Shown piece after piece: positions 630-55,095 of a DNA stretch of 64,000 nt. Under the pieces are notes generated by a model. The model saw nothing but the letters and a program-made list of their open reading frames with translations. It had not been told where the DNA came from and ran no database searches. The stretch's first letter is position 1. Every line of letters begins with the position of its first letter. Position numbers and translations under genes: made by a program. The stretch comes from an uncultured Candidatus Saccharibacteria bacterium (GTDB lineage: Bacteria > Patescibacteriota > JAQUNI01): contig CAZKRD010000002.1 of assembly GCA_964555185.1 (NCBI GenBank), positions 120,438 to 184,437 on the forward strand. The letters run 5' to 3'.

Positions 630-2204
630 TTAATATTGTATTCTCAACCCTTTAAGGTAGCTTTGGACATACAATTTTGCTCTACTGATCACGAGGTGGG
701 GATTTTTTCCAATTGAATTGATCGCCCATAATACTTTTTCATTTAACGGTATTTTCTTTAGCGCAAGATGGTTAAGTTCTTGTAAAACGTTTTCTAAGTA
801 ACTAAAGGGCACAGTGTCACTGAAGGAGCGAATTACATTATCTCCATTATACATAAAAAAATTCTCAAATCTTTCTTGGTTACCAATAATGTTATGCTTT
901 TTGCAAAGATTCCATACTGCCGTTCCTGGATAAGGAACGGTAAGATAAACTTGAAAGAAATCTATCTTTTTAAGATTGGTTAAAATAAATTTTTTAGTTT
1001 CTTCGATCTCCGCTTTTGTCTCTGTTATAGAGCCGATCATGAAATTGCCAAATATATTTAATCCGGCCTTTCTAGTTGTTTCAATAGCCTTCTGATTTTG
1101 GGCTACCGAAACGGTTGGTCCTTTAAGAAACTTAAGCACTCGATCAGAACCGCTCTCAAAGCCAAATTCCAATTGTCTACAACCTGCTTGTTTCATTTTT
1201 CTTAGGAGAGGGAGCGCGTTTTTGTCAAGAAAATTTACTCTTACCTGACAGGACCAGATCATTTTTTTGTGATAACCTTTTTGGATCATCGCATTACAAA
1301 GTTTTATAACGCGGTCTCTATTGGCAATAAATAAATCATCATGAAAAAAGAGGGCTTTTACACTAAGATCATTAATTAATTCATCTATTTCTTTCATTAC
1401 ATAGGGAATGGAATGGGTCCTATATTTTTTTGCGATAATGTTGCTCGCGCAAAATTTGCATTGATAAGGGCAGCCTCGTGAAGTCAGAATACTTGTGCTT
1501 CGCCGAGCAGGAAGACCCCTGATCAATTGGCGAGGCGCTAAGTAATATTCGAGGTTAAAAAGTTTACGATCGGGGGGCGGAATTTTGTCTATATCCAAAA
1601 TAAGTTCTCGCTCGAGAGTTTTAATAATTCTACCATTCTTGGTTCGAAAAGCCAGCCCCTTTATTCTTTTTAAGCTGTCCGTGTTTAATTTGCCATCTTT
1701 TTTGAGCCAGGCTGTACATAGTTCGTTGATTGTTTCTTCAGCTTCGCCCAACAGGATAACATCTATTTTGGGATAATCGCGAAGTGTGCGTTCTGGTAAA
1801 ATTGATGCATGAATACCTCCGACAATAATTAAGACATCTTTTCTTATTTTTCTCATTTTACGTACTAGCGCGCCCGTTCTGACAATTTGGGGTGTGGTCG
1901 AGCTTATACCAACAATATCTGGTTTTTTCCGAAAAAAAATCTCCAAAATAGAATCCCCTGCGTTTTCATCTGCTAAACTGATATTAATATTACCCGGGTT
2001 ATATTTTTTCAGATATGATGAGATATAGCCAATCCCGAAAGATATATATTGATGTCTGCCTCTTACCGGAATTACCAATAATAGTTTTAATTTTTTTTTC
2101 ATGGAACAGAAATTCAATTTAGTCTTTCGGAGTAATGAAGAGCTCGGGGAAGGTTTTTTTTGGAAAATGAGTTTTATGAACTCTCTTGGATTTTTGGAAT
2201 GCAT
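630..2204 (-). CDS. Class B (cobalamin-binding) radical SAM enzyme
   Basis: 524 aa. The N-terminal B12-binding-like domain includes ...VGISSTTPQ...IIVGGIHAS.... The radical SAM motif is SRGCPYQCKFCAS (CxxxCxxC). Confidence 0.75.
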   Translation of the reverse strand: MHSKNPREFIKLIFQKKPSPSSSLLRKTKLNFCSMKKKLKLLLVIPVRGRHQYISFGIGYISSYLKKYNPGNINISLADENAGDSILEIFFRKKPDIVGISSTTPQIVRTGALVRKMRKIRKDVLIIVGGIHASILPERTLRDYPKIDVILLGEAEETINELCTAWLKKDGKLNTDSLKRIKGLAFRTKNGRIIKTLERELILDIDKIPPPDRKLFNLEYYLAPRQLIRGLPARRSTSILTSRGCPYQCKFCASNIIAKKYRTHSIPYVMKEIDELINDLSVKALFFHDDLFIANRDRVIKLCNAMIQKGYHKKMIWSCQVRVNFLDKNALPLLRKMKQAGCRQLEFGFESGSDRVLKFLKGPTVSVAQNQKAIETTRKAGLNIFGNFMIGSITETKAEIEETKKFILTNLKKIDFFQVYLTVPYPGTAVWNLCKKHNIIGNQERFENFFMYNGDNVIRSFSDTVPFSYLENVLQELNHLALKKIPLNEKVLWAINSIGKNPHLVISRAKLYVQSYLKGLRIQY

Positions 2205-2234
2205 ATTAGTTTTAACATTTTTAAGTGGCGAGAA

Positions 2235-3455
2235 TCAGGAAATTTTACAAATATCCTTAGAATCCTTACTCATAGCTTTTGATAACATATTAACCCACCT
2301 TGAATCCCCCAATACTTTAAAAGTATGTAATGTATTGGGTTTAATCACAAAAATATCTCCTTTTTTTACAATAAAATCTTTTTTTAAATTAGTATTTATA
2401 TCTAGTAAGGACACCTTAATCCTGCCATCTATAATATAGAAGCCCTCTTTAGTCTTTTTATGGTAATGGTTTCCCCTTGTGCATCCTTTTAGAGACTCAA
2501 TATAATTTATTTCTTCCCACTTTTCACCTTGCATAATTCCTGTCAATTTGCCTCGACCATCAGTAAAAGAAAAATAAGGGCTGATTAAATTTCCAAAAAG
2601 ATAATGTAACGATTTTTTTACGCTGGGACAAGAATCTCCTAATATCTGCCTGCTATATCCAGTATTCAATGAACTATCTTGAGCAATTGACCCATCTAAT
2701 GGTTGCCTGCATCTCTTAATTAATGATTTGTCTTTTCCCATTACTTTAGCTACCTGAACAGCAAAATTATAACGAGAGATTTTTTTCTTGCCCGCGATAT
2801 GGATAATGCCTCTATAATCTTTATTAATTAATTTTTCTATTGAGTCAGTAAGATAGTCAATATAGGTTGGTGTATAAAAGACATCATCAAAAATATCCAC
2901 TGTTTTGTTTTGTTTCAGGCAGTCTAATAAAAAATTAAAAAAGTTTCCGCCTCTTCCGTATACATTAGCGGTGCGACAAATGATATAATTTTTCAATTCA
3001 TCTTGAATATCCTTTTCCGACATGGCTTTTGTTTTGCCATAATAAGTTTTAGGATTTGTTGTCTCACTTTCTTTGTAATTGCCTTTTTTTCCGTCAAAAA
3101 TATAGTCAGATGACATAAAAACCAGCTTTATATTGGGATTAACTTTTGCTATTGCCTTAATAAAATTTTTTGTGCCGTCAATATTAACTCTTTGGGCATT
3201 TTTTTGATCTTTTTCGCATTGAGCTAAACTACTAATGCCAGCTGCGTGGATTATTATCTTAGGATGAACTTTTTTAACAATATCCAATACTGCTTTGATG
3301 CTGGTAATGTCTAATTTATAGGTCTTTTCTTTTTTAGATTGATTTAAAGTTGAAGCATAAATATCATAATTATTATCATTCTGCAGCTTTTGTCTTAAGT
3401 TGGATCCAATGTAACCATCAGCTCCGGTAATTAATATTGTTTTTTTGTTTTCCAT
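2235..3455 (-). CDS. Fused NAD-dependent sugar epimerase/reductase (N-terminal) and cupin (C-terminal) domains; a sugar-nucleotide modifying enzyme
   Basis: The N-terminus has the Rossmann motif ILITGADGYIGSNL and an RmlD/epimerase-like fold, including YGKTK. The C-terminal ~130 aa look like an RmlC/FdtA-type cupin (HYHKKTKEGFYIIDGRIKV...). Confidence 0.55.
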   Translation of the reverse strand: MENKKTILITGADGYIGSNLRQKLQNDNNYDIYASTLNQSKKEKTYKLDITSIKAVLDIVKKVHPKIIIHAAGISSLAQCEKDQKNAQRVNIDGTKNFIKAIAKVNPNIKLVFMSSDYIFDGKKGNYKESETTNPKTYYGKTKAMSEKDIQDELKNYIICRTANVYGRGGNFFNFLLDCLKQNKTVDIFDDVFYTPTYIDYLTDSIEKLINKDYRGIIHIAGKKKISRYNFAVQVAKVMGKDKSLIKRCRQPLDGSIAQDSSLNTGYSRQILGDSCPSVKKSLHYLFGNLISPYFSFTDGRGKLTGIMQGEKWEEINYIESLKGCTRGNHYHKKTKEGFYIIDGRIKVSLLDINTNLKKDFIVKKGDIFVIKPNTLHTFKVLGDSRWVNMLSKAMSKDSKDICKIS

Positions 3456-3469
3456 AATTTATAAAGTTT

Positions 3470-4903
3470 TTATTTATTATTAGGTTTAGACATTTTAATA
3501 GAATAAGCTAATATTTTTTTAGTTGCTGTCAACAAGCCCTCTCTTTTGATTTCGCTTGTTATAAAAAAACCTAATGTCTTTGGCTTTTTGAACAATACAT
3601 GTCTATACCACATCTTCCAGCCCAAATGAAACATTTCCTCAATTTTATTTGCTGGATAATCCAGATATGAGACCGCGCTTTTTCCAGTTGCATCAAAATA
3701 ACCAGGATCTTCAGAGATTAGCCATCCGTTTGTCTTCGCCTTTTTGTAAAATGTCGTACCAGGATAGGGTGTGGCAATAGCTATTTGGACAAGATCAGGA
3801 TTTGCGGCAATAACATCTTGTAACATCTGGTAATCCTTCTTCCACGTTGATTTACACAAACCGACCATCAAATTGACATAAGATTTCATCCCTAATTTTT
3901 TACATTGCTTAATAATTTCTAAAAGCCTTTCTCTTTTCAAGGGCTTTGGAATTGCCTTCAAAACATCTTGATCTAAATGTTCTAAGCCATATTTGTAAGT
4001 CACACATCCCGCCCTGGCCAGAAGTTCCAATGTTTCGTCATCCACTAAGCCGTCACCCATACATAGCCACTTCACTTTTAGTTTTCTGTTCATTATTTCT
4101 CCACAGATCCCATCTATATGTTTTTTGCTAGAGACCATATTATCGTCATCAAAATAAATTTCGTCAAATTTATATTTTTTTTGTAAATATTCCATCTCAT
4201 CCACTACGCTCTTGGCACTCCTCATACGGTAGACGTGTTTTCCGTAAAAGGATTCTACATTGCAGAAGCTGCACTTAAGACGGCAGCCCCTTGATGAAAC
4301 CATAATAATATTTCTGCCGTAGCAAGAAGGCTCATTATAATATTCAATCGGGGTATCATCTCTTTCGGGGAAAGGCAACAAATCTAAATCCGTAACTAAA
4401 TCAGGTTTATCATATTTTCTTTTTTGTGCGCTGATGAAATTCTTAGGGAGAATTTTACGATCAGATTTAAAAAATTCCAAAAGAGAAAATTCGTATTCAC
4501 CAACAATAGAATAATCAACCCGTGTTTTTTTTAAACACTCAAAAGGGTAATTTGTCGCGTAATTACCCACAGCTATTTTTTTAATATTTTTATCAACTGA
4601 ATCAAGTAACCTTTTATCATCTTCTACGCTAATCCATGTTGGTTCACAGACAATATGAGTTGGTTTAATTTTTTCTATAAAATCAATTGTTTTCTCAAAA
4701 CTCCATTTCATAGCCACTGCATCTTTGAAAACAGCATCAAGTCCATTCCTTTTTAATAAAGATGTTGTATATCCCATAAACCACGGATAGGGATAATATC
4801 TTAAAACGGCAGATCCCTCTTTGGTGGTGTTATACCATCTTGATCCGGACTTTAATACTAAACCCGGTAAATTAAGTATGAGTATTTTGTGCATTTGAAT
4901 CAA
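3470..4903 (-). CDS. Class B (cobalamin-binding) radical SAM enzyme
   Basis: 477 aa. The motif SSRGCRLKCSFCNV is a CxxxCxxC. An N-terminal B12-binding-like region is present. Its architecture matches the 630..2204 protein. Confidence 0.75.
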   Translation of the reverse strand: MIQMHKILILNLPGLVLKSGSRWYNTTKEGSAVLRYYPYPWFMGYTTSLLKRNGLDAVFKDAVAMKWSFEKTIDFIEKIKPTHIVCEPTWISVEDDKRLLDSVDKNIKKIAVGNYATNYPFECLKKTRVDYSIVGEYEFSLLEFFKSDRKILPKNFISAQKRKYDKPDLVTDLDLLPFPERDDTPIEYYNEPSCYGRNIIMVSSRGCRLKCSFCNVESFYGKHVYRMRSAKSVVDEMEYLQKKYKFDEIYFDDDNMVSSKKHIDGICGEIMNRKLKVKWLCMGDGLVDDETLELLARAGCVTYKYGLEHLDQDVLKAIPKPLKRERLLEIIKQCKKLGMKSYVNLMVGLCKSTWKKDYQMLQDVIAANPDLVQIAIATPYPGTTFYKKAKTNGWLISEDPGYFDATGKSAVSYLDYPANKIEEMFHLGWKMWYRHVLFKKPKTLGFFITSEIKREGLLTATKKILAYSIKMSKPNNK

Positions 4904-4919
4904 TTTTTTAGAAAACTAA

Positions 4920-6137
4920 TTATATAATGCAATCGGACAGATTTTTAGTAAGTAATTTATTAATATCTATGGTTTTGACAAACTCTTTGATATTAGCTTG
5001 ATACTCCTTCTGGAGATTTTCATCCAAAATAAATCTTTTTATTACCTTGATGATTTCATCTTTTTTATTATTAACCGCCAAGCAAACTCTCTTCTTACCT
5101 AATTCTTGAACAATGGCTGGAACCTTGGAAGCAATAGTTGGTATTCCAAAGCTTAAATAATATTTCACCTTGGCTGGTTCAGTGTATTTCATAAAATTTT
5201 CTTCATCTTTGTACAAAGCTACTCCTAAAATATTATTCACCATAAGTTTTGTGAATTTTTTTCCCTCTTCCACAAATCCATGAAAAATAATATTTTTTTC
5301 TAAACCTAATTTTTTTGCCAATTTTTTAAAATACTCTTCGTCCGGGCCACTGCCAATCAAGTTTAATTTGATTTTTTTAAATTCTTTTGCGAGTTCAAGA
5401 ACCACACTAAATAATAGATCAAGTAGATGATATCTATTTATGACGCCGCAATACACCAAAGAGAACTTATTATTCTCATTAATCGGCTTAGAAATAAATT
5501 TTTTCACATCTATCCCTAGAGGAATAATTTGATAGTCATGTTTACGGCGATCAAAATACCCGTATTTTTCTCTACCAATTATATGGCCTAGGGTGGTAAA
5601 CCAGATTGAATCGCTATTATTTAAACAAAATTGATCAATAATATAAAACACCCTATTTAAATATCTATATATACCCGCTGGTGGTAAAGGAAAAAAATCC
5701 ATTACGCGATAGATAACAAAATCAACTTTCCCTAACTTTTTTAGGATTAATCCACACAAGGTGCAAAAATAGTTGACCCCCATAAAGATCCTCTTCTTCC
5801 GCCTTGGCCTTTTCCGCAATAGAATAAGTGCTTGAGATAAATAAATAAGATAATTTAACGGTAGAAACAAAAAATACAAAAATTTATTATCAAAAACAGG
5901 TATTGAAAAGATAACTCTCTCGGATACCTTTGATTTATCTCTATAATGAATTAACGAAGAATGCATTCCCCCTTTACTATGGGGAAATTTCCATTTAAGG
6001 TAGGTAAAGTCAGCAAAATTATTAATAAAGTAACTGACATAGTTTTCTAACCCAACCGGCACAAATGAACAAAATAATAGACTGTTTTTTTTGTCCATAG
6101 TATTGCTTTTTATATTTCCAGCTTTTCCAAAGAACAT
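4920..6137 (-). CDS. Glycosyltransferase, family 1 (GT4-like)
   Basis: 405 aa. The C-terminal GT1 signature is ...LVYCGVINRYHLLDLL...IGSGPDEEY...FHGFVEE.... Confidence 0.55.
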   Translation of the reverse strand: MFFGKAGNIKSNTMDKKNSLLFCSFVPVGLENYVSYFINNFADFTYLKWKFPHSKGGMHSSLIHYRDKSKVSERVIFSIPVFDNKFLYFLFLPLNYLIYLSQALILLRKRPRRKKRIFMGVNYFCTLCGLILKKLGKVDFVIYRVMDFFPLPPAGIYRYLNRVFYIIDQFCLNNSDSIWFTTLGHIIGREKYGYFDRRKHDYQIIPLGIDVKKFISKPINENNKFSLVYCGVINRYHLLDLLFSVVLELAKEFKKIKLNLIGSGPDEEYFKKLAKKLGLEKNIIFHGFVEEGKKFTKLMVNNILGVALYKDEENFMKYTEPAKVKYYLSFGIPTIASKVPAIVQELGKKRVCLAVNNKKDEIIKVIKRFILDENLQKEYQANIKEFVKTIDINKLLTKNLSDCII

Positions 6138-33411: not shown

Positions 33412-33550
33412 TGGCTTTTAAGCAGTGTTTAAATAAGTTGATATTATAGAACTATAATTAATAAAAGTCAAGAAAAGGTGTCATTGCGGGCGACTCCACA
33501 CCTTTTTTGAAAAAAGGCGTGGAAGAGCGCGGCAATCTCGTGAAATACAA

Positions 33551-34765
33551 TCAAATTATTAATAGTTTTTTATAGACTTTCGTTAATTTTTTATAATAAG
33601 CTTCTGGGTCGTATTTTTTAATTTCTGCCTTTGCTCTTTGCCCTATTTTTTGGGTCAATTTTGGATTGTGAAAGAGGTATTGGATTTTTTTTCTTAATTC
33701 ATCTCGATTTTCAAAAAGCAGACCGTCTTTCCCTTGTTCAATCAGTTCAGGCAGAGCTCCTCTCGCGCTTGCGACTACGGTTTTTCCTAAATTGAATGCC
33801 TCTAGAACAGCAAGGCCAAAAGTTTCTTCGCTCATGCTGGGTACAACCACAAAACAAGAATTCGCAATCAGTTTTTTTAATTCTTTTTCGTTTTTAAAAC
33901 CCAAAAATTCTACATTAGAAATATTTTTCTGGGCAACCGTCTTGATTAACCTATTTTTGTCTGGACCTTTGCCCGCTATTTTGAATTTAATCCAAGGGAG
34001 CTCTAAAGCTGTCGAAATTAAAAGATCCAGTCCCTTTTCCGAGGCAAGCCGGCCAAAATAGAGAACATAATCTTTTTTTCTATTTTGGGCCGCTATTTTT
34101 GCTGGCTTTATAAAATGCGGCAGGACAATTAATTTGTTTTCTGACATTCCCCAGGCAGTTAGTTTGTTTTTTACAAATTGACTGGGACAGATAAAAATAT
34201 CGACATATTTCTGATAAAAACAAAAAGTTTTGTGGAGATACATCTCGAGTGAACTTAGAAGGGAGGCAAAATAAGAATCTTTGACGCATTTATTTAAAAA
34301 GCATTGATAGTATTTATGTTGTTTGCATTTCTCGCAAACCTGACCTTTGTTAAATAATTTGTAATTTGGACAAATCAATTTGTAGTCATGGACAGTCATC
34401 ACAATCGGAATATTATTCTTTTTTAAAATTCCTAAAATAGAGGGTGAAATCTGATGATAGATATTGTGGATATGAGCAATGCCTGGTTTTTCTTTTTTGA
34501 TTAATTTTTTAATTTTTTTGCGTGCTTCTAGAGAATAAAGGATTCGGGCTGCGTTTTTTAGAGCTTTTAGAGAGAATCTAACTCTTTTTAAATTCATTTC
34601 ACTGACAAAATATTCTTGATAGGCAGATGAAATATTTTTTTTACCTTCCATTGCAAAAGGAATCACAGTGTGGCCGCGCGCTTCTAGTAATTCTGTTAAA
34701 TCAAAATAATGACGGTCTGATCCGCCCTGGATGTGATGGAATTTATTGATATTCAAGATGATCAT
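33551..34765 (-). CDS. Glycosyltransferase family 1
   Basis: ...VVVPSMSEETFGLAVLEAFNLGKTVVAS... (EX7E-like). Confidence 0.7.
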   Translation of the reverse strand: MIILNINKFHHIQGGSDRHYFDLTELLEARGHTVIPFAMEGKKNISSAYQEYFVSEMNLKRVRFSLKALKNAARILYSLEARKKIKKLIKKEKPGIAHIHNIYHQISPSILGILKKNNIPIVMTVHDYKLICPNYKLFNKGQVCEKCKQHKYYQCFLNKCVKDSYFASLLSSLEMYLHKTFCFYQKYVDIFICPSQFVKNKLTAWGMSENKLIVLPHFIKPAKIAAQNRKKDYVLYFGRLASEKGLDLLISTALELPWIKFKIAGKGPDKNRLIKTVAQKNISNVEFLGFKNEKELKKLIANSCFVVVPSMSEETFGLAVLEAFNLGKTVVASARGALPELIEQGKDGLLFENRDELRKKIQYLFHNPKLTQKIGQRAKAEIKKYDPEAYYKKLTKVYKKLLII

Positions 34766-34774
34766 ATTTTAAAA

Positions 34775-35662
34775 CTATGTTTTCCTGTATTTTAAATAAA
34801 GCTTGGTTCCGCTCAAGAATTTAATCAAATGGAAGCTAAGATTATGTTTGGGGTAATGTTTTTTCCAAAAGTAAAGCAAGCTTTTTCTTTCATGAAGTTT
34901 TGGGATAAAAGAGTTTCTCGAGGAGGCTTTGTGTTTATGAATCACTTGGGTTTTGCCCCAAAAGATAATCTTAAATCCTGCTTTCTTTACTCTTTTGCAG
35001 AAATCAATGTCTTCGAGATACATAAAATATCTAGGATCAAAGAGGCCAACTTTGTCAAAGACAGATCTGCGGATGAAAGGACAGGTTCCAGAGAGCCATT
35101 TTACTTCTCTCATCTGATAGAATTTTTTCCGAGTTAAAATATTGGGCATAATGATTCTGCCCCAAGGAAGGATCTTGTAAAGCAGTGTAGCCTGCAAGAT
35201 CTCAGATAAAAGAGAAGGGTAATTGCCAAAATTAGTTTGCAGTTTTCCGCCCGGGTAAACAAGGCGCGGTGAAAGGATAGCGACATCAGGATTTTGATCT
35301 AAGAATTTCAAAGTGCGTAGTAAAGATTTATTCACAAAAGCATCTGTATTGAGAAGCAAAACATATTCACCGCGCGCTTTCCGAATTCCTTGGTTGACAG
35401 CTCGAGCAAAGCCACGATTTTTTTTGTTAACAATTAACTTTACTTTAGGGAAATGTTTTTTAATAAGTAGAACAGACTCATCTTCTGAATTGTTATCAAT
35501 TAAAATAATCTCGTGTTTTATTTCAGAAAATGAAGAATAGACCCTTTCTAAACACTTTAGAGTTAATCTAGCTGTATTGTAACTTGGGATGATGACAGAA
35601 AGTTGCATTATTTTTTTGCTAAGAATCTGTTTTGGACTAAAAGCAGTCCCACAATATACCAA
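34775..35662 (-). CDS. Glycosyltransferase family 2
   Basis: SVIIPSYN, IDNNSEDES, and DxD in LLNTDAF. Confidence 0.7.
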   Translation of the reverse strand: MVYCGTAFSPKQILSKKIMQLSVIIPSYNTARLTLKCLERVYSSFSEIKHEIILIDNNSEDESVLLIKKHFPKVKLIVNKKNRGFARAVNQGIRKARGEYVLLLNTDAFVNKSLLRTLKFLDQNPDVAILSPRLVYPGGKLQTNFGNYPSLLSEILQATLLYKILPWGRIIMPNILTRKKFYQMREVKWLSGTCPFIRRSVFDKVGLFDPRYFMYLEDIDFCKRVKKAGFKIIFWGKTQVIHKHKASSRNSFIPKLHERKSLLYFWKKHYPKHNLSFHLIKFLSGTKLYLKYRKT

Positions 35663-36969
35663 AAGATAATTCCGTAATAGAGTCCGACTAGTGTGACCTC
35701 TAAAAGAGCATTGATTAAAACTATGATCATGGTTGAGACAAAGCCAAGGTACAGAATTTTATCGTTTTGCTCTTTGGCCAAGGCTTTCATCTTTTTAAGT
35801 TCACGGTAAATTTGACGGATAATCAGGATTAAAATTGCTAAACCAATAAGACCGAGTTCTAAAACTATTTGCAAAAAGAAATTATTGCTTTCACTCTCGA
35901 TAGACCAGGGTAAAAGATTTTTATACTCCAATTTTAAATTGCCAACCCCATATCCTAAAATGGGTTTTTGAAAGAAGAGCTTGAAGGCCACTTTGCCTTC
36001 GGTTATTCTAAAGTTTGTATTTGGATCACTAGCTGTATTATAGATTCTTTCTAAAAGTTTTCTGCTATAAGAAGCAAGGGGGAAAGCAATGAGGAGCAGA
36101 ATAACAATTAAGATAACAAGAGCTAAAAGTTTTTGAATCTTTTGTTTGGTGAAGAAATAGGAAAGACCAGAGAGTGCGGCAATAATTTCTCCTTTGCCTA
36201 AAGTGAGAGCAGAAGCAGTAAATCCTAAAACTATTTGTAAAGAAAGAATAATCTTTAACCATATTTTTTTAGTGTTGAGGGCAAGTGCATAGGTTAAAGG
36301 CAAGGTTAGAATAATCACAGCCGCGATGTAAACCCATCTGCCCACTGGGGTTATGATCCATTCTCGAGCAATAGTATAGTTTCCATTAAATCCACCTAAA
36401 GAAGCAACCTTGGAAATTAGTTGAATTGAAACCAAGAATCCAGTTAAAGGCAGACTGTAAAGAGCAATTTTAAGATCTTTTTTGGTTCTAACGAGGTTAA
36501 TAATTAAGAACAGAATAGCAAGGTGAAAAAGTAAAGCACGAATTGCGATCAAAGCTCGAGAAAGGTTATGAGCCCAGCCCAAAGATAAGACAGCAAGAGC
36601 AAGATAAAGGATTAAGATCACAAGAAGAAAAGGAAACTTTATTTCTCTAATTTTTCTGCGGGTCAGGATTTGTAAAACAAAGAGAACAGAGATTAGAATG
36701 ATTAAAATTTCTCCCAAAGTAATCTCATAATACCAATCCCTAATTCTTAAAGTGGTCACCTGGCCAAAAATAATTGTTGGCAGGATTAAGGCCAAGATTA
36801 AGGCCGGTTTTTTCAAATAAAGAAAAATAGAAAGTAAAAAACCAGCAAGTATAGCTAAAAGTAACAGCAGAGCCTGCCATTCCCCGCTTTGGTAATAACA
36901 AAACAGAGGCATAAAGATACCAAAGAAGAGAATTAAAAGAGACAAGATGATTATTTTTTTAGTTCTCAT
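35608..36969 (-). CDS. O-antigen ligase/polymerase-like polytopic membrane protein (Wzy/WaaL family)
   Basis: 453 aa, 10 or more TM helices, with a larger periplasmic loop near the C-terminal third. It sits in the glycan locus. Confidence 0.5.
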   Translation of the reverse strand: MRTKKIIILSLLILFFGIFMPLFCYYQSGEWQALLLLLAILAGFLLSIFLYLKKPALILALILPTIIFGQVTTLRIRDWYYEITLGEILIILISVLFVLQILTRRKIREIKFPFLLVILILYLALAVLSLGWAHNLSRALIAIRALLFHLAILFLIINLVRTKKDLKIALYSLPLTGFLVSIQLISKVASLGGFNGNYTIAREWIITPVGRWVYIAAVIILTLPLTYALALNTKKIWLKIILSLQIVLGFTASALTLGKGEIIAALSGLSYFFTKQKIQKLLALVILIVILLLIAFPLASYSRKLLERIYNTASDPNTNFRITEGKVAFKLFFQKPILGYGVGNLKLEYKNLLPWSIESESNNFFLQIVLELGLIGLAILILIIRQIYRELKKMKALAKEQNDKILYLGFVSTMIIVLINALLEVTLVGLYYGIIFWYIVGLLLVQNRFLAKK

Positions 36970-37021
36970 AGACGTTAGACTATACTATATTTTATTAGTA
37001 TTGTCAATCAAAATTAAAAGT

Positions 37022-37076
37022 TAAAAAAAGGACAAAGAGAAGCAAGGTATTTCTTGTTTTTTGCTTTCTTTGTCCC
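37022..37076 (-). terminator. Rho-independent terminator for the 37094..38311 gene
   Basis: The 16-bp stem GGACAAAGAGAAGCAA / TTGCTTTCTTTGTCC is followed on the minus strand by CTTTTTTTAAC. Confidence 0.6.
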
Positions 37077-37093
37077 GTAGGACTCGTGGCGAG

Positions 37094-38311
37094 TTACTGA
37101 GTTATTACTCTACCGTTCTTTATTTCCAGATCCAGGTAGTAGGATCCGTCAGCGTTCTGGCCGACCAGTACACTCGAAACATCTTCTGGTGTGAAGATCA
37201 GCCAGTTGCTGGTCTGATCCAGTGGATCAAAGGGAATGTTGGGATTTCTGGCTACGACATTGGCCCGCGTGGTGATGTTGTAGGCGATGTTACTTGCCTG
37301 GACTTTGTAAACACCACCGACTTTTACCATAGGAACCGTGGCCAACCACTCATCGAAATCTCCGGTCATATATAGAACTTCGCCAGTCCTAGGTCCACCA
37401 TACTTGAGGCGAGCCGGATTGATTACGATATCCTGATCATTATTTTCAATCCGGATCAGCCATTCACCATCTGGCGGCTCGACAGGCGGATCGACATACG
37501 GATCTCCGCCACCGATGTTGATATTTACCTGAACGTTACACGATCCTCCGTTCAGATAGTTGCCGCTATTATCCAGGGATCCATCAAAGTCATAGACCGG
37601 GTAAGCAATTGCGCTTCCGGGATCGGTTTCAACCAGGTAACAGGCGGTTGTCCCATTTACCATCGCTCCAATAGTTCTTCTTGAGCCTGCCTGAAAGTGA
37701 AAGCGCATCGTTCGACCTGGCGGATACTTAGTTCCAAATATCCATTTTCCAGTAGATTCATATGACATCTTAACTAACAATCCACCAGTTGCCTGTGACC
37801 ACAGGTACATTTGCGATCCGGATGTGCCTTCGATGGCATATGTTACTTTTCGTAATGGTTTCTCTGGAGCGAGCTGGTGAATGGACCCATTCGGCTTGAA
37901 CATCAAGAGAAACTTTCCCTCGTCCGTATAATTAGCCAGCGAGGTTCCATTTACCATCACATCGAAGAAGGGATAGTCATGGTACACCTTGAGATACCCT
38001 TCTTTACCGGAATAGAAAGTTAGACTTACGTTTGCTAGATCTCCTGGGCTTGCGAATTCTTTCAGGGTGCTCCCATCGGCAAAAATGTCACTTTCCAGAC
38101 AAATTTGGGTAGAACCAGTAGTGCCCGGGGCGAGCGTGTTGCTGTTCGGTACTGCAGCATCTGCCCAGGGTAACGAGACATTGGCGGCGATAGTTCCGGA
38201 CTCGAACAGATTGTTACCTGTGAGACTTGCTAACGGACTGCGAGCTTCTTCGCAACCAACCAGAGCCAGCAGAATAAATATTGTTATGCTTGAGAAAATT
38301 AATTTTCTCAT
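37094..38311 (-). CDS. Secreted lipoprotein of unknown function, encoded in a GC-rich island
   Basis: Signal peptide with lipobox LALVGC. 405 aa, rich in Gly, Asn and Thr. Third-codon-position GC is clearly above that of neighbouring genes. Confidence 0.45.
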   Translation of the reverse strand: MRKLIFSSITIFILLALVGCEEARSPLASLTGNNLFESGTIAANVSLPWADAAVPNSNTLAPGTTGSTQICLESDIFADGSTLKEFASPGDLANVSLTFYSGKEGYLKVYHDYPFFDVMVNGTSLANYTDEGKFLLMFKPNGSIHQLAPEKPLRKVTYAIEGTSGSQMYLWSQATGGLLVKMSYESTGKWIFGTKYPPGRTMRFHFQAGSRRTIGAMVNGTTACYLVETDPGSAIAYPVYDFDGSLDNSGNYLNGGSCNVQVNINIGGGDPYVDPPVEPPDGEWLIRIENNDQDIVINPARLKYGGPRTGEVLYMTGDFDEWLATVPMVKVGGVYKVQASNIAYNITTRANVVARNPNIPFDPLDQTSNWLIFTPEDVSSVLVGQNADGSYYLDLEIKNGRVITQ

Positions 38312-38337
38312 TTTTCGTTCACTCCTTCTTTATCATT

Positions 38338-38374
38338 GTCATTGCTTCGCTTGTTGTCACTCGCTCGCAATGAC
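38338..38374. repeat. Short inverted-repeat element GTCATTGCTTCG...TCACTCGCT...CGCAATGAC, copy 1
   Basis: It shares the terminal 9-bp inverted repeats and an internal TCACTCGCT with the element at 55040..55095. Confidence 0.5.
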
Positions 38375-38387
38375 AGATCGACATGTT

Positions 38388-38603
38388 TCAGCAGGGGTCT
38401 TCTTCAGCTTCCAGCTTTTCCAGTATTCTTATTTGATTATCTTCCAGGCGGTTCGAAGCTCTCTTCAAATACTGAAGATCAGCCTCGAGATTGCTCGATT
38501 TTCCTCCTCCAAAGCAACAGTAGACTCCGCATCCGGAGAACAGAAGCAAAGCGATTAAGATCAAGCAGATTGCTGCAATTCTCGTTTTCATTACCAACAA
38601 CAC
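38388..38603 (-). CDS. Small lipoprotein with a coiled-coil tail
   Basis: Signal peptide plus lipobox LLFSGC. 71 aa. Confidence 0.3.
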   Translation of the reverse strand: MLLVMKTRIAAICLILIALLLFSGCGVYCCFGGGKSSNLEADLQYLKRASNRLEDNQIRILEKLEAEEDPC

Positions 38604-39403
38604 CTCCTTTCCAGTTTCTGTGACGGGATATAAGCCATTTTGACCAAGATCCGATTTTCATCCTGGTCAACATCAATCCTTCCAGTCTGCAAGTTTTTCT
38701 CTTTGTGCCTCACCCGCGCCCAAGAAACCTCTACGAAACTATTCTTTCGCATCAGTTTCAGATAAAGTCCTGCTTGGGGCCGGTAGGTCCCCTTATAATT
38801 CCGGTTATGATAGTGAACCCAGATAAACTGCGGTCCAATTTCAACAACCTTGTGGGGAGTCAATCCTATTCGCACAACAGCTTCATTATAGACGCTGTCA
38901 AGTCTCAAACCCCTTAATCTTCCAAGATCAGAGGTTGAATAGGCAGCTTCTACAACTACTGGTTTTTGCCTAAAACCCATTTGAGCAGCGAAACGATTTG
39001 AACTGAAGTCCAGGTTATGTTTCGTCTTAACCTCATCCCAGATAAGGATATGAAACCATTTCCAGTAAGAAAAGGCTTCTAGATTAAGATTGTAACCTAG
39101 CAGTTCTTCGCCCTTTCCTTCTTGCAGGCTCTGGGCGCTCCAATACTCATAATCGATTCTTTGCCACATCACTCCGCCATCCAGATTAAGTCTGAGTGGG
39201 ATTTTCCATGGTCGCTTTGTAGCAATACCTATGGCCACGGTGTCCTCGTTGAGGAAATTGTGGGCTACCCCAATCTCCAGCTGCGCTAGATCAGTGAGAG
39301 GAATAGCAACACCTATATTACAAGCAGCTTCATTTTCTTCTGCCTGCGTCGTTAGTCCAGTTAACAAGAACATTATTGCTGTAATAATCAAACATTTTCT
39401 CAT
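38591..39403 (-). CDS. Secreted beta-rich protein, possibly a beta-barrel, in the GC-rich island
   Basis: Signal peptide. Alternating hydrophobic dyads (LEIGVAHNF, VVVEAAYST, LYLKLMRK, ILVKMAYIP). C-terminal aromatic residue (W). Confidence 0.35.
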   Translation of the reverse strand: MRKCLIITAIMFLLTGLTTQAEENEAACNIGVAIPLTDLAQLEIGVAHNFLNEDTVAIGIATKRPWKIPLRLNLDGGVMWQRIDYEYWSAQSLQEGKGEELLGYNLNLEAFSYWKWFHILIWDEVKTKHNLDFSSNRFAAQMGFRQKPVVVEAAYSTSDLGRLRGLRLDSVYNEAVVRIGLTPHKVVEIGPQFIWVHYHNRNYKGTYRPQAGLYLKLMRKNSFVEVSWARVRHKEKNLQTGRIDVDQDENRILVKMAYIPSQKLERRCCW

Positions 39404-39613
39404 CCTTTACCTCCGTTTCGTTGATTTTAGATATCTTAAACTGTTAACTCGCCATTATATATAATTACCCTCACCTTTTGAGAGAACCACCTGCTTTGGT
39501 ACGCATCCCTCTCTAGAAAATTTTCGAAATTCGTTTTCTAGAAAGCGGGACAAGTGATTCCCCAAAAAGTGAAGGCAATTATTTTTTTGGAAAAGAACGA
39601 AATATATTAAAAC

Positions 39614-40372
39614 TTATCGATTGATGATTTTAAGCCCTCCGATATAACCGCCAGAGTTATTGTTAACCTCTTCCTCTTGAAGATTCTTTTCTGGCTCTGG
39701 CGCTATTTCCTTTTTTTCTTTGTAGGTTTCTTTCTTTGGACGTTTCTTTTTTTTCTTTTCAGGCTTTCCCATATTCCAGGCAATGTAAATAGCCGAAATT
39801 ACTAAACCGACAAAAAAGCTTAAAATAGTATTTAAAAGCAGATTGGGCTTGACTGGTCTTTCAGAAACCAAAGGGGTATCAATCACTAAAACATTAACTT
39901 GATCACCAAGATTGTAATACTTTTTGCCTTTATCAGAGAAAACATAGATAATCGCATTAGCAATCTTTCTGGTTTCTTTTTCTGAAGGGTGATAGACACT
40001 AATTTCAATAATACTTGTGTCCGTAGTGACTCGAGAATCAACCATATTTGCCCATTTTTTTCTCAAATCCTTTTCTTTGGTTGGAAAATAGGCTTTATCA
40101 ATAGGGAATCCTGAATTTAGGACATCTTTTTGAAAGGCGCTGCTTTTAATTATTTTTGCAAGCAGAACAGCCAGTCTTTCTGCTGATTGACTGGCTTGGT
40201 ACATATCTAAATTAAAGGTTGCTTTTTGGCTAACTAGAATACTGGCTTTGGCTCTGTAAAGCGGTTCGCGAAGAAAGCTGGTGATTAAGCTGATTGCCAT
40301 TACAACCAGGACAATAATCACAATTGCTCTGTAATCGTAGCGGATTTTTCCAAGATATTGTTTGAAATTCAT
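39614..40372 (-). CDS. Wzz-like polysaccharide chain-length determinant (PCP family)
   Basis: The N-terminal and C-terminal TM helices flank a ~150-aa periplasmic region. The tail is Lys-rich. Confidence 0.5.
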   Translation of the reverse strand: MNFKQYLGKIRYDYRAIVIIVLVVMAISLITSFLREPLYRAKASILVSQKATFNLDMYQASQSAERLAVLLAKIIKSSAFQKDVLNSGFPIDKAYFPTKEKDLRKKWANMVDSRVTTDTSIIEISVYHPSEKETRKIANAIIYVFSDKGKKYYNLGDQVNVLVIDTPLVSERPVKPNLLLNTILSFFVGLVISAIYIAWNMGKPEKKKKKRPKKETYKEKKEIAPEPEKNLQEEEVNNNSGGYIGGLKIINR

Positions 40373-40501
40373 GGGTTTTTTAACAAAGAGATTATTCTAA
40401 GACATAATAAAAAATCTGTCAAGGTTTTGACAGGATTGTTTAATCAAAGGATTAGAGGGTTAACGGATTATCCAATCTTTTGTTAATCCGTAAGCCGTTA
40501 A

Positions 40502-41776
40502 TTAATTGTCTTTCATTTTTCCCAAAGTAACTTTAATTTCTAAAGTTTTTTTGTTTCTTAGAACCGTCAATATAACTTCATCATTTGGTTTATATTTTTG
40601 GAGCAAACCCACAAGAGAATGATTTTCGTTTATTTCATATTCATTGATTTTGGTAATGATATCAAGCTCTTTTAATCCAGCTTTCTGGGCGGGCGAGCCG
40701 GGCACGATCGGCAGAAGATCAGGATCACCAGTATAAATCAAGATTCCGTTATTTGTTGCTAACTGATTTAGGGAGGCAAATTCCGGGGTGATTGGGATAT
40801 AACGGATGCCGATAAGGGGCCGGATGATTTTGCCTTCGCGGATCACGCTTTCAATCACAGTTTTAACATTGTCAATCGGGATTGCGAATCCGACGAGTTG
40901 ACCATTAGCGTCAATCGCCGTGTTAATGCCAATTACTTGACCACTTAGGTTAATCAGCGGTCCGCCGGAATTACCGGGATTGATCGCGGCATCGGTCTGG
41001 ATGACGTCCTCTAGGCTTTCGGTTTGAAATAATCCATTGCCGGCTTTTATTGAGCGGCTGATTCCAGAAACCACGCCGGCGGTTACTGTGTTTTGGTATT
41101 CGCCTAAGGTGTTGCCGATCGCGATCACTCTTTGTCCTACTTCTAAATCAGTAGAGTTGCCTAAATCCACGACAGGCAAGTTTTCAGCCTCGATTTTAAT
41201 AATTGCGAAATCATTAGAGGGATCGCGCGCGATTACTTTTGCTTTGTAGCTTTTTCCTTCTTGGGTGATTACAGTGTAAGTGGCTTGTTCTTCTGCAACA
41301 ACATGTTTGTTGGTAGCGATTAATCCATCATTAGTGATGATAAAACCGGTGCCGCCCGTTTTTTGCTGGTAGATATTGCCGAAAAAGCCGCGGAAGTCCC
41401 TTTCGCTTACGATATTGACCACGGCGGGCGAAATTTTTTTGACCGCTTGAATAATGCCGGATTCTTCGGTAACCGTGATTTTTTCACTTTTTTCAATCAC
41501 CACTGGCTGGTCTGTCTGCAAAAAGCTTATTTTTTCCAAAGCGGGAATAGTGGAAAGGCGGGGCAGAATAAATCTATCCATCGCAATATTAGAGAAAGCC
41601 CCCGCAATAAAAGCAATAATCAGAATGAGCAAAAAGAAGCTTGCGCGGGAAAGACAGAATCCACTTTTAGTTTTTGGAATTTTTGTTCTGCCTGAAACCG
41701 CAGGTAGTCTCATTTGAGTGGAATGAGCTCCGGTTTGAATAGATTTTATTTGGATATCTTTGAGATTATCGCGCAT
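40502..41776 (-). CDS. htrA: HtrA/DegP-family serine protease with a PDZ domain
   Basis: Catalytic GNSGGPL. The Ser-His-Asp trypsin fold is followed by a C-terminal PDZ domain. An N-terminal TM anchor is present. Confidence 0.8.
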   Translation of the reverse strand: MRDNLKDIQIKSIQTGAHSTQMRLPAVSGRTKIPKTKSGFCLSRASFFLLILIIAFIAGAFSNIAMDRFILPRLSTIPALEKISFLQTDQPVVIEKSEKITVTEESGIIQAVKKISPAVVNIVSERDFRGFFGNIYQQKTGGTGFIITNDGLIATNKHVVAEEQATYTVITQEGKSYKAKVIARDPSNDFAIIKIEAENLPVVDLGNSTDLEVGQRVIAIGNTLGEYQNTVTAGVVSGISRSIKAGNGLFQTESLEDVIQTDAAINPGNSGGPLINLSGQVIGINTAIDANGQLVGFAIPIDNVKTVIESVIREGKIIRPLIGIRYIPITPEFASLNQLATNNGILIYTGDPDLLPIVPGSPAQKAGLKELDIITKINEYEINENHSLVGLLQKYKPNDEVILTVLRNKKTLEIKVTLGKMKDN

Positions 41777-41861
41777 ATTTTTGAATTAGAATTGTCTAAT
41801 CGGCAGACTAGAAATTCTGATAATTTGTTAACCCGTTAATTCGCAAAATTCGTTAATCGAT

Positions 41862-42671
41862 TCACTGCGGCTTCCACTGGGCTGTTGCGAGCACCGATGT
41901 GATTACGATCACAGCAATACTGAAATAGACCTTGATCAATTTTCTGGTCAGAGCTTCCCGTGAATAGTGTTCTAGGATACCTAAGATGATGTAAAAACTG
42001 GCCATCAGGACAATGCTGTTTGCAATATAATTGGTCGGCCAAAAGCTCAATGACCAGAAGATTTGGGCGAGACCCAAAGAAATCACATTGGCATAGACCA
42101 AAGCTCTTCTTGGTGGAAATATTTCACTAAGGAATTGCCAGGCAAGCAGAAAGATGATTACTACAGCGACAATCAGCGTCTGCCAAATCGCGAAAGAAAG
42201 GAGATAGATTATACCAAAAAGACTGCTTAAAGCAAAAAAAGCAGTTAGGAGGATTAGGGCTTGATTGACGGTTAGAATAATTCTTCTTCTTTTGTCTTGT
42301 TCTGATTTCAAGATTACCTGCTTTTTGCTTTCAGCATGATAATGGCTCAAAACAGAGATATTATTCAAAACAATAGCCAAAACAATACTGATCCCAAAAA
42401 GAAAGATGTGCTGGGTTAAGCTTTTTTGGGCGAGGACAAAAAGAGAGAGACTGGCTAATGTATAAAGAGTTGGCAGAATCAGGTAGGAGAGCTTTTTTAA
42501 TTTTTTGGTCTGCCAAAATCCACTCAAATAAAGAGAGGATAAAATCACGACCGCGATTAAAATAATAAAAAGCCACCAGAATAGTTCTGGCTTCTGGATT
42601 ATCGTTTCCATTATAGCGAACATAGCGAGAACAGGAATCGCAATCGCGGTTTTGGAGAGAAAAGCGCTCAT
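41862..42671 (-). CDS. Polytopic membrane protein of unknown function
   Basis: 269 aa with about 8 TM helices. Its start overlaps the valS stop by 4 nt. Confidence 0.4.
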   Translation of the reverse strand: MSAFLSKTAIAIPVLAMFAIMETIIQKPELFWWLFIILIAVVILSSLYLSGFWQTKKLKKLSYLILPTLYTLASLSLFVLAQKSLTQHIFLFGISIVLAIVLNNISVLSHYHAESKKQVILKSEQDKRRRIILTVNQALILLTAFFALSSLFGIIYLLSFAIWQTLIVAVVIIFLLAWQFLSEIFPPRRALVYANVISLGLAQIFWSLSFWPTNYIANSIVLMASFYIILGILEHYSREALTRKLIKVYFSIAVIVITSVLATAQWKPQ

Positions 42672-54985: not shown

Positions 54986-55039
54986 AATATCAGTTAAAAG
55001 TGCAAAGTGAAAAGTTACAGCGCGAGCTGTCATTGCTTC

Positions 55040-55095
55040 GTCGCCTCTCGCTCGTTTCACTCGCTTGAGACTCCTCGCAATGACAAATTGAAATT
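55040..55095. repeat. Short inverted-repeat element GTCATTGCTTCG...TCACTCGCT...CGCAATGAC, copy 2
   Basis: The terminal inverted repeats GTCATTGC/GCAATGAC and the internal motifs are shared with 38338..38374. It lies ~55 bp upstream of the fpg start. Confidence 0.5.

Follow-up and report, generated by a model that had tools for sequence, protein, structure and literature searches.

Why should a locus for bacterial surface-glycan synthesis carry, between the gene for its chain-length determinant and that for its polymerase, three genes for exported proteins that are richer in guanine and cytosine (GC) than the DNA around them? An earlier note on the same DNA had taken these genes for a candidate acquired surface or adhesion module. 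Our analysis covers a 64-kb window (the whole stretch of DNA that was analysed) from marine metagenome sample SAMN10404973, part of a scaffold of 355,555 bp, and leads us to another view of where this cassette comes from. With moderate confidence we propose that it is a long-resident three-gene operon, encoding a secreted beta protein and two lipoproteins, whose place between wzz and the Wzy_C gene is fixed within a surface-glycan locus of the Wzx/Wzy type. The host probably belongs to the candidate phyla radiation (CPR). An exported, surface-located module in a glycan locus is indeed supported, but its recent acquisition is not.

A cassette in a fixed slot of the glycan locus

The cassette consists of three minus-strand genes (Table 1) with the Wzz gene as its upstream and the Wzy_C gene as its downstream flank. 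The glycan-locus setting claimed in the earlier note, with O-antigen-ligase-like and Wzz-like neighbours, is borne out by the domain matches of both flanks, and the three open reading frames that it listed are real: gene 1 encodes 270 residues, gene 2 encodes 67 or 71 depending on the start codon, and gene 3 (37094-38311 in full) encodes 405. All three are under purifying selection when compared with their orthologues on the related contig L005, the ratio of nonsynonymous to synonymous substitution rates (dN/dS) being 0.076 for gene 3 and higher for the other two. The cassette is a self-contained three-gene operon, with a structured region upstream, translational coupling of genes 1 and 2, and a terminator. 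A GGAGG ribosome-binding site precedes gene 1, and the ATG of gene 2 at 38591 overlaps the gene 1 stop codon by 1 nucleotide. This ATG is most likely the true start of the small gene, since gene callers and homologues agree on it, and the GTG at 38603 is a less likely one.

The related contigs that carry the cassette are labelled L005/L006, L007, L091-L093, L094 and L095, and the protein homologues P0006-P0008. In every homologue cluster the gene order runs Wzz, a secreted protein of 270-284 residues, a lipoprotein, a second lipoprotein, Wzy_C, GT2, GT4 and GT4, and on all of these contigs, including those of relatives at 25% identity, the cassette is invariably placed between wzz and the Wzy_C gene. 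The synteny block spans about 14 genes, and the longer contigs also keep the genes for NiFe-hydrogenase, HypA, Ddl, valyl-tRNA synthetase (ValRS), DUF5656 and HtrA. Protein identity between the window and the P0006-bearing contigs is 69% for ValRS, 68% for HtrA, 68% for Ddl and 69% for the NiFe hydrogenase, and 60% for Wzz, 55% for Wzy_C and 62-64% for the glycosyltransferases. Because the 90%-identity cluster of P0006 includes GenBank TSC52988.1, annotated as 'Parcubacteria group bacterium LiPW_72', and the shared synteny holds at 55-69% protein identity, the host is probably a Parcubacteria-like CPR bacterium, an assignment that hinges on this one database label. A ValRS scan of GTDB gave matches of only 45-48% from mixed phyla and does not resolve the taxonomy.

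Contigs from three other sequencing runs (SRR8482195, SRR8482192 and SRR8482191) are 100% identical to the window across positions 35000-41800, which speaks against an assembly chimera or a mis-binned segment. Towards L005, DNA identity continues at 76-79% through both borders of the cassette, and protein identity is 69-78% for the cassette and 80-88% for the flanks. The families themselves are small: a word-indexed search returned two relatives of the 270-residue protein and one of the 405-residue protein, and when 1.84 billion representative proteins were searched exhaustively with HMMER, the 270-residue family came to four clusters in total. For this family no relatives were found in GTDB representative genomes or in viral contigs; plasmids held none of the 405-residue protein, PHROGs matched none of the three proteins, and a metagenome scan with the lipoprotein alignment (A8) re-found only the L092 contig. 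Homologues in higher-GC taxa, a possibility raised in the earlier note, did not turn up either, in a search that was exhaustive for the 270-residue family only. The window has no tRNA gene, and the neighbouring genes include no integrase, in an analysis that did not extend to flanking direct repeats. Thus, with the slot conserved, divergence continuous across the borders and no mobile or donor relatives, horizontal acquisition is not supported, and the cassette is best described as long-resident, lineage-specific and fast-evolving, co-inherited with its flanks among close relatives.

The export signals are equally constant. As had been predicted, all three products carry signal sequences and two of them a lipobox, and these signals are conserved in all homologues. 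Lipoboxes were judged by eye, not with a dedicated predictor, by the pattern [LVI][ASTVI][GAS]C; the lipobox cysteine is invariant across alignment A7 and is conserved in the close homologues of the 67-residue protein and in the distant middle lipoproteins. The gene 2 product has homologues of 69-70 residues in L005 and L007 and a weak match to the coiled-coil family CT398_CC, and it matches the N-terminal part of the middle lipoprotein L092_244 from a distant relative. To judge from these alignments, it is evidently the remnant N-terminal part, lipobox and helical segment, of the 222-244-residue middle lipoprotein of the distant relatives. Residues 1-271 of the gene 3 product match the distant third lipoproteins with blastp E-values of 1e-34, 1e-33 and 3e-16, and its C-terminal domain matches that of the distant middle lipoprotein in hhalign with 97.5% probability and an E-value of 6e-12. 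One domain of the middle lipoprotein has therefore been translocated and now forms the end of the third, and the total domain set has been kept. Three uncharacterised, fast-evolving families of exported proteins are fixed in one slot of the glycan locus of a probable CPR lineage, and their domain set survives the rearrangement of genes.

What might these products do? That a domain moved between the lipoproteins while the inventory was kept suggests that they act as a unit. The moved domain carries the motif Y-x-TGDFDEW and weakly resembles a starch/glycogen-binding beta-sandwich carbohydrate-binding module (CBM), with sub-threshold hits only, to SusF (PDB 4fe9) at an E-value of 0.15, to AMPK1_CBM at 0.04-0.07 and to CBM_48 at 0.09. 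These hits agree with one another in direction, but we treat the resemblance as a lead and not as a classification; given this lead, the complex would most likely handle or bind glycan. Both lipoproteins would be tethered to the cell membrane at its outer face and would form, with the secreted beta protein, one surface complex. The most likely task of this complex is to bind, organise or anchor the polysaccharide that the locus produces or, as an adhesin, to bind the glycan of a partner cell. The SusE and SusF lipoproteins and the CBM48/AMPK-beta modules offer a parallel as lipid-anchored surface proteins or beta-sandwich modules, the C-terminal domain of gene 3 carrying the motif Y-x-[VT]-GD-[FE]-x-x-W. 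However, the hits to them are far below threshold, and the cassette lies in a biosynthetic locus and not in a polysaccharide-utilisation locus. The 67-residue product similarly recalls Braun-type Lpp in being a lipoprotein of very small size that is predicted to be mostly helix or coiled coil once mature, but it is not homologous, has no C-terminal lysine and evidently derives from a larger two-domain lipoprotein. Little is understood about the envelopes of CPR bacteria, whose way of life is attachment to other cells. A surface-exposed complex that is conserved, may bind glycan and has its genes next to that of the polymerase would therefore be a concrete candidate for a part in envelope assembly or host attachment.

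Some results weigh against this proposal. The CBM resemblance falls below every curated threshold (13.8 bits for AMPK1_CBM against a cut-off of 26.8) and depends for the most part on a single motif, and AlphaFold2 gave unusable models for the alignments of both the 270-residue protein (3 sequences) and the 405-residue protein (2 sequences), with a predicted local distance difference test score (pLDDT) of 29.9 and 35.3, respectively. As to origin, the far lower long-range identity of the cassette compared with its flanks could mean an old replacement within the slot rather than pure vertical descent, and the homologue of gene 1 in L092/L093 has a GC content at third codon positions (GC3) that exceeds the local-codon expectation by +0.115, which amino-acid content does not explain. 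The copy with this excess lies at 5004-5828 of L092 and 10001-10825 of L093, while the window copy has no such excess; a bias linked to expression could account for it, as could a separate history of that allele. It is possible that the ancestral cassette was swapped by recombination in one lineage for a very divergent allele, in the manner of the variable centres of capsule and O-antigen loci. Between the window and L092/L093 the 270-residue protein is 25% and the lipoprotein 31% identical, against 53-69% for all ten flanking proteins, and the architecture differs as well (67 plus 405 residues against 244 plus 280), to which the GC3 excess of the first gene may be added. However, faster evolution is common among surface proteins and needs no transfer, recombination breakpoints were not identified, and towards L005 cassette and flanks diverge at similar rates with DNA identity unbroken. 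We therefore consider such a swap rather unlikely and retain long residence as the preferred explanation.

Several observations on the lipoproteins remain to be recorded. They have no match in Pfam, NCBIfam or PHROG, and their family profiles have no usable Pfam or PDB homologue. An apparent PDB match of A8 to the 'Bagel' designer propellers (E-value 2e-9) was discarded, since a single 35-residue segment matches eight identical repeats, and the E-value of each match taken singly is above 250. A second internal CBM-like motif, or paralogy within the lipoprotein, was likewise rejected, as hhalign finds none between the C-terminal domain and the N-terminal part, and it finds no relation between the 270-residue family and the lipoprotein. 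The small lipoprotein has extra cysteines just past the lipidated one and ends in Pro-Cys (38391-38399 in the window; also in L005 and L007), and the 270-residue protein ends in Cys-Cys-x or Cys-x in the same three close lineages (38594-38602 in the window). The distant relatives have none of these extra cysteines, which may link the two proteins by a lineage-specific disulfide tether.

The secreted 270-residue protein

The 270-residue protein belongs to a family that has no Pfam, NCBIfam, PDB or PHROG match, with profiles searched against Pfam and PDB to E-values of 10. An AxA-type signal peptidase site (TQA/EE, the slash marking the cleavage) is conserved in all homologues. Hydrophobic periodicity of the beta type lies 2.7-4.3 z units above that of shuffled sequences across the family (2.7 for the window protein), and alpha periodicity lies below it; hence the protein and its family are very probably all-beta. 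Its members are only 20-26% identical, yet 24 alignment columns are invariant, with E, R, Y, Q and W predominating, among them E53, E109, E188, E225, E235, R167, R251, Y85, Y155, Y198, Y214, Q192 and W88.

Such a set of invariant residues would fit an enzyme or a binding site and is more typical of these than of a structural barrel. Polysaccharide loci often include a glycan-trimming enzyme. Perhaps, then, the protein is a secreted glycan-processing enzyme, for example a lyase or hydrolase of the jelly-roll type, that trims the polymer of the locus while the lipoproteins bind or tether. No glycoside hydrolase, polysaccharide lyase or carbohydrate esterase family matches it in Pfam or PDB at E-values up to 10, however. 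We regard an enzymatic role as unlikely.

A more radical scenario is that the protein is embedded in a membrane as a beta-barrel, that is, an outer-membrane-type porin or polysaccharide export channel with two accessory lipoproteins, comparable with OPX/Wza-Wzi or GfcBCD. The earlier note had called it beta-barrel-like because of its amphipathic periodicity and its terminal tryptophan. The periodicity stands and, with the signal peptide, is found in all members; inspection by eye suggests about 12 amphipathic segments over some 250 residues, G-F or A-Y closes the last predicted strand, and the gene lies between wzz and wzy, where export components are often encoded. The terminal tryptophan fares less well, since the C-terminal residues of the family are W, Y, R, K, R and F in polar and basic tails, and the conserved C-terminal aromatic beta-signal of substrates of the beta-barrel assembly machinery (BAM) is absent among its members. 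The family thus resembles OmpA, OmpX and OmpW in its signal peptide, in being about 250 residues long, in its strong beta periodicity and in its richness in aromatic residues, but it differs from them in its tails, in carrying more charge and less glycine and in the absence of any family similarity. Lysine plus arginine (11-16%) is higher and glycine (5-8%) lower than in OmpA/OmpX control sequences, and no outer-membrane protein family or solved structure is similar at E-values up to 10. Moreover, beta periodicity fits soluble beta-sandwiches equally well. One relative bears a Parcubacteria label, and comparative envelope studies class CPR bacteria as monoderm (bioRxiv 10.1101/2021.05.31.446380), which would place the host in a clade regarded as having no outer membrane. 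An outer-membrane barrel is therefore unproven, and the barrel reading as a whole very unlikely. Were it true, a cryptic outer layer or a BAM-independent barrel would have to exist in a clade regarded as having neither outer membrane nor BAM; that a true membrane-embedded barrel and two lipoproteins make up a new device for polysaccharide export or anchoring in a cell of the CPR/Parcubacteria type is less probable still.

The accessory envelope proteins known from Wzx/Wzy-dependent loci offer a comparison. Like Wza/OPX, Wzi and GfcB-C-D/YjbF-G-H, the cassette lies in a Wzy-type glycan locus beside a chain-length regulator and encodes exported proteins, including lipoproteins and a beta-rich component, for which polymer handling outside the cytoplasmic membrane is plausible. 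Sizes and domain set are unlike theirs, however, and the host is probably a monoderm CPR bacterium. No Pfam or NCBIfam match to OPX/Wza, Wzi or GfcB/C/D (YjbF/G/H) was found at E-values up to 1 for the window proteins or up to 10 for the members of A3, A4 and A8.

It is also conceivable that the exported proteins are acceptors of the glycan and not its handlers. The Wzy_C-family protein would then act as a PglL-like O-oligosaccharyltransferase that glycosylates the lipoproteins, a notion to which we give very little credence. It matches TIGR03097, 'putative O-glycosylation ligase', with an E-value of 1e-9, far below the cut-off of that model, and the middle lipoprotein of L092 has a long low-complexity linker of alanine, serine and threonine. 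A monoderm host would have no lipid A that could serve as the acceptor of a ligase. The window proteins have just a short proline-rich linker, however, and the Wzy_C protein fits an ordinary Wzy polymerase equally well.

Base composition of the cassette

If the cassette is resident, why does it stand out in GC content? The earlier note had described an island of about 50% GC on a background of about 38%. The flagged interval (37077-39470) is the 2.4-kb stretch of highest GC in the window, but the step was overstated: the interval has 45.7% GC against a window mean of 39.3%, and its z-score against all such stretches is 2.2. By gene, GC is about 0.476-0.478, 0.444-0.449 and 0.439-0.441 for the 270-, 67- and 405-residue products, respectively, and only the first of them tops the window. 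Nor are third codon positions markedly GC-rich, as had been claimed. GC3 is 0.48 for gene 1, 0.47-0.49 for gene 2 and 0.435 for gene 3, inside the spread of the window genes (mean 0.417, standard deviation 0.057), many core or housekeeping genes of which reach 0.45-0.53.

The GC expected of each gene was derived from its amino-acid sequence under the synonymous codon preferences of the window, with the island left out. In the same gene order this predicts 0.461, 0.438 and 0.444, against 0.478, 0.449 and 0.441 observed, and the predicted values already lie at the top of the window distribution (mean 0.403, standard deviation 0.023). The differences between observed and expected GC3 correspond to z-scores of +0.67, +0.92 and -0.18, all within one standard deviation. 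The island proteins contain 4.7% lysine against 10.6-10.9% in those of flanking and core genes, and they are poor in isoleucine and rich in glycine, aspartate and threonine. The raised GC thus reflects the amino-acid make-up of exported soluble proteins and not a recent foreign origin, and since codon usage is native, horizontal acquisition as read from composition is not supported.

What is visible as an island is largely an effect of contrast with AT-rich membrane-protein and glycosyltransferase neighbours. Indeed, the genuine codon-usage outliers of the window are AT-rich genes of the glycan pathway, at 630-6137 (z-scores of -1.6 to -2.6) and at 33551-36969 and 39614-40372 (-1.2 to -1.8). 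Should any part of the locus have been exchanged horizontally, these are better candidates than the island. They encode radical S-adenosylmethionine enzymes, an epimerase, GT4, GT2, Wzy_C and Wzz, with GC3 of 0.26-0.35. The GC of the cassette exceeds that of its flanks in L005, L092 and L094 too, and does not in L095, where Wzz is the sole flank available. As a caution, a step in GC may stem purely from the amino-acid make-up of exported proteins that happen to be encoded next to AT-rich glycan genes. A recent horizontal gain of a foreign, higher-GC surface or adhesion island is therefore extremely improbable and already largely refuted: the GC peak, three orphan products with no family assignment and the bounding of the region by a terminator and a long hairpin speak for it, but native codon usage with a GC excess that follows from amino-acid content, the same slot in every related lineage found, the absence of an adjacent integrase or tRNA gene and of homologues in the collections searched, and the continuous divergence from L005 all speak against it.

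Transcription signals and other elements of the locus

Table 1. Position of the cassette genes, their flanks and the nucleic-acid elements in the 64-kb window.
Feature	Position	Strand	Details
Wzz/CpsC-type chain-length determinant, upstream flank	39614..40372	-	PF02706, 27.5 bits; AT-rich, GC3 0.33
Long hairpin of about 108 nucleotides, between wzz and the start of gene 1	39455..39575	-	minimum free energy -49.8 kcal/mol, z = -7.7; near-perfect
Gene 1, 270-residue secreted beta-rich protein, orphan family	38591..39403	-	signal peptidase I-type signal peptide, cleavage at about TQA/EE; dN/dS 0.15
Gene 2, 67-residue lipoprotein	38388..38591	-	lipobox LFSG/C; short helical coiled-coil-like segment, conserved C-terminal Pro-Cys; dN/dS 0.26-0.37
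GTCATTGC...GCAATGAC palindromic hairpin, gap between genes 2 and 3	38338..38374	.	-20 kcal/mol, z = -3.4
Gene 3, N-terminal part, residues 1-271 of the 405-residue lipoprotein	37499..38311	-	lipobox LVG/C; corresponds to the whole of the third lipoprotein (278-281 residues) in distant relatives
Gene 3, C-terminal domain, residues ~278-405, after a proline-rich linker	37097..37480	-	homologous to the C-terminal domain of the distant middle lipoprotein
Rho-independent terminator closing the three-gene operon	37022..37076	-	16-bp stem + T7, -18.9 kcal/mol, z = -3.2
Sigma-70-like promoter for the Wzy_C gene, just after the cassette terminator	36979..37007	-	TTGACA-17-TATAGT, 11/12 matches; conserved in L005 and L092
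Wzy_C-family polymerase or ligase, downstream flank	35608..36969	-	PF04932, 53 bits; AT-rich, GC3 0.33

The clean Rho-independent terminator described in the earlier note is confirmed and conserved in four lineages, its stem showing compensatory changes in L005, L092 and L094. Because a promoter follows directly, the Wzy_C and glycosyltransferase genes are transcribed apart from the cassette. At the other end, the long hairpin upstream of gene 1 is about 95% conserved in L005 and L007, against about 77-81% for the neighbouring coding DNA, with two compensatory pairs. Within it lies the palindrome TCTAGAAAA-N13-TTTTCTAGA. The hairpin occurs once only in the window, and Rfam gave nothing credible in the region, this hairpin included. 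It may serve as a 5' leader, a processing site or an operator palindrome.

The second palindrome had been thought to bracket the island on its upstream side; its inverted pair in fact lies inside the island, between the 67- and 405-residue genes. The element GTCATTGC(GAG)...GCAATGAC recurs in intergenic gaps, at 33480-33487 and 55029-55084 of the window besides the cassette copy and at 1770-1780 and 7771-7781 of L005, with five core matches against 1.3 expected. Its position varies, from between genes 2 and 3 in the window to upstream of gene 1 in L005, and this difference between relatives suggests a small mobile or repetitive extragenic palindromic (REP)-like hairpin.

Beyond the glycan genes, the conserved block beside the ValRS and HtrA genes holds a group-3-like NiFe hydrogenase (Oxidored_q6 and NiFeSe_Hases) with HypA at 46.9-49.1 kb, and a DUF5656 membrane protein at 41862-42671. 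This gene set agrees with the CPR-type content of the Parcubacteria-labelled relative.

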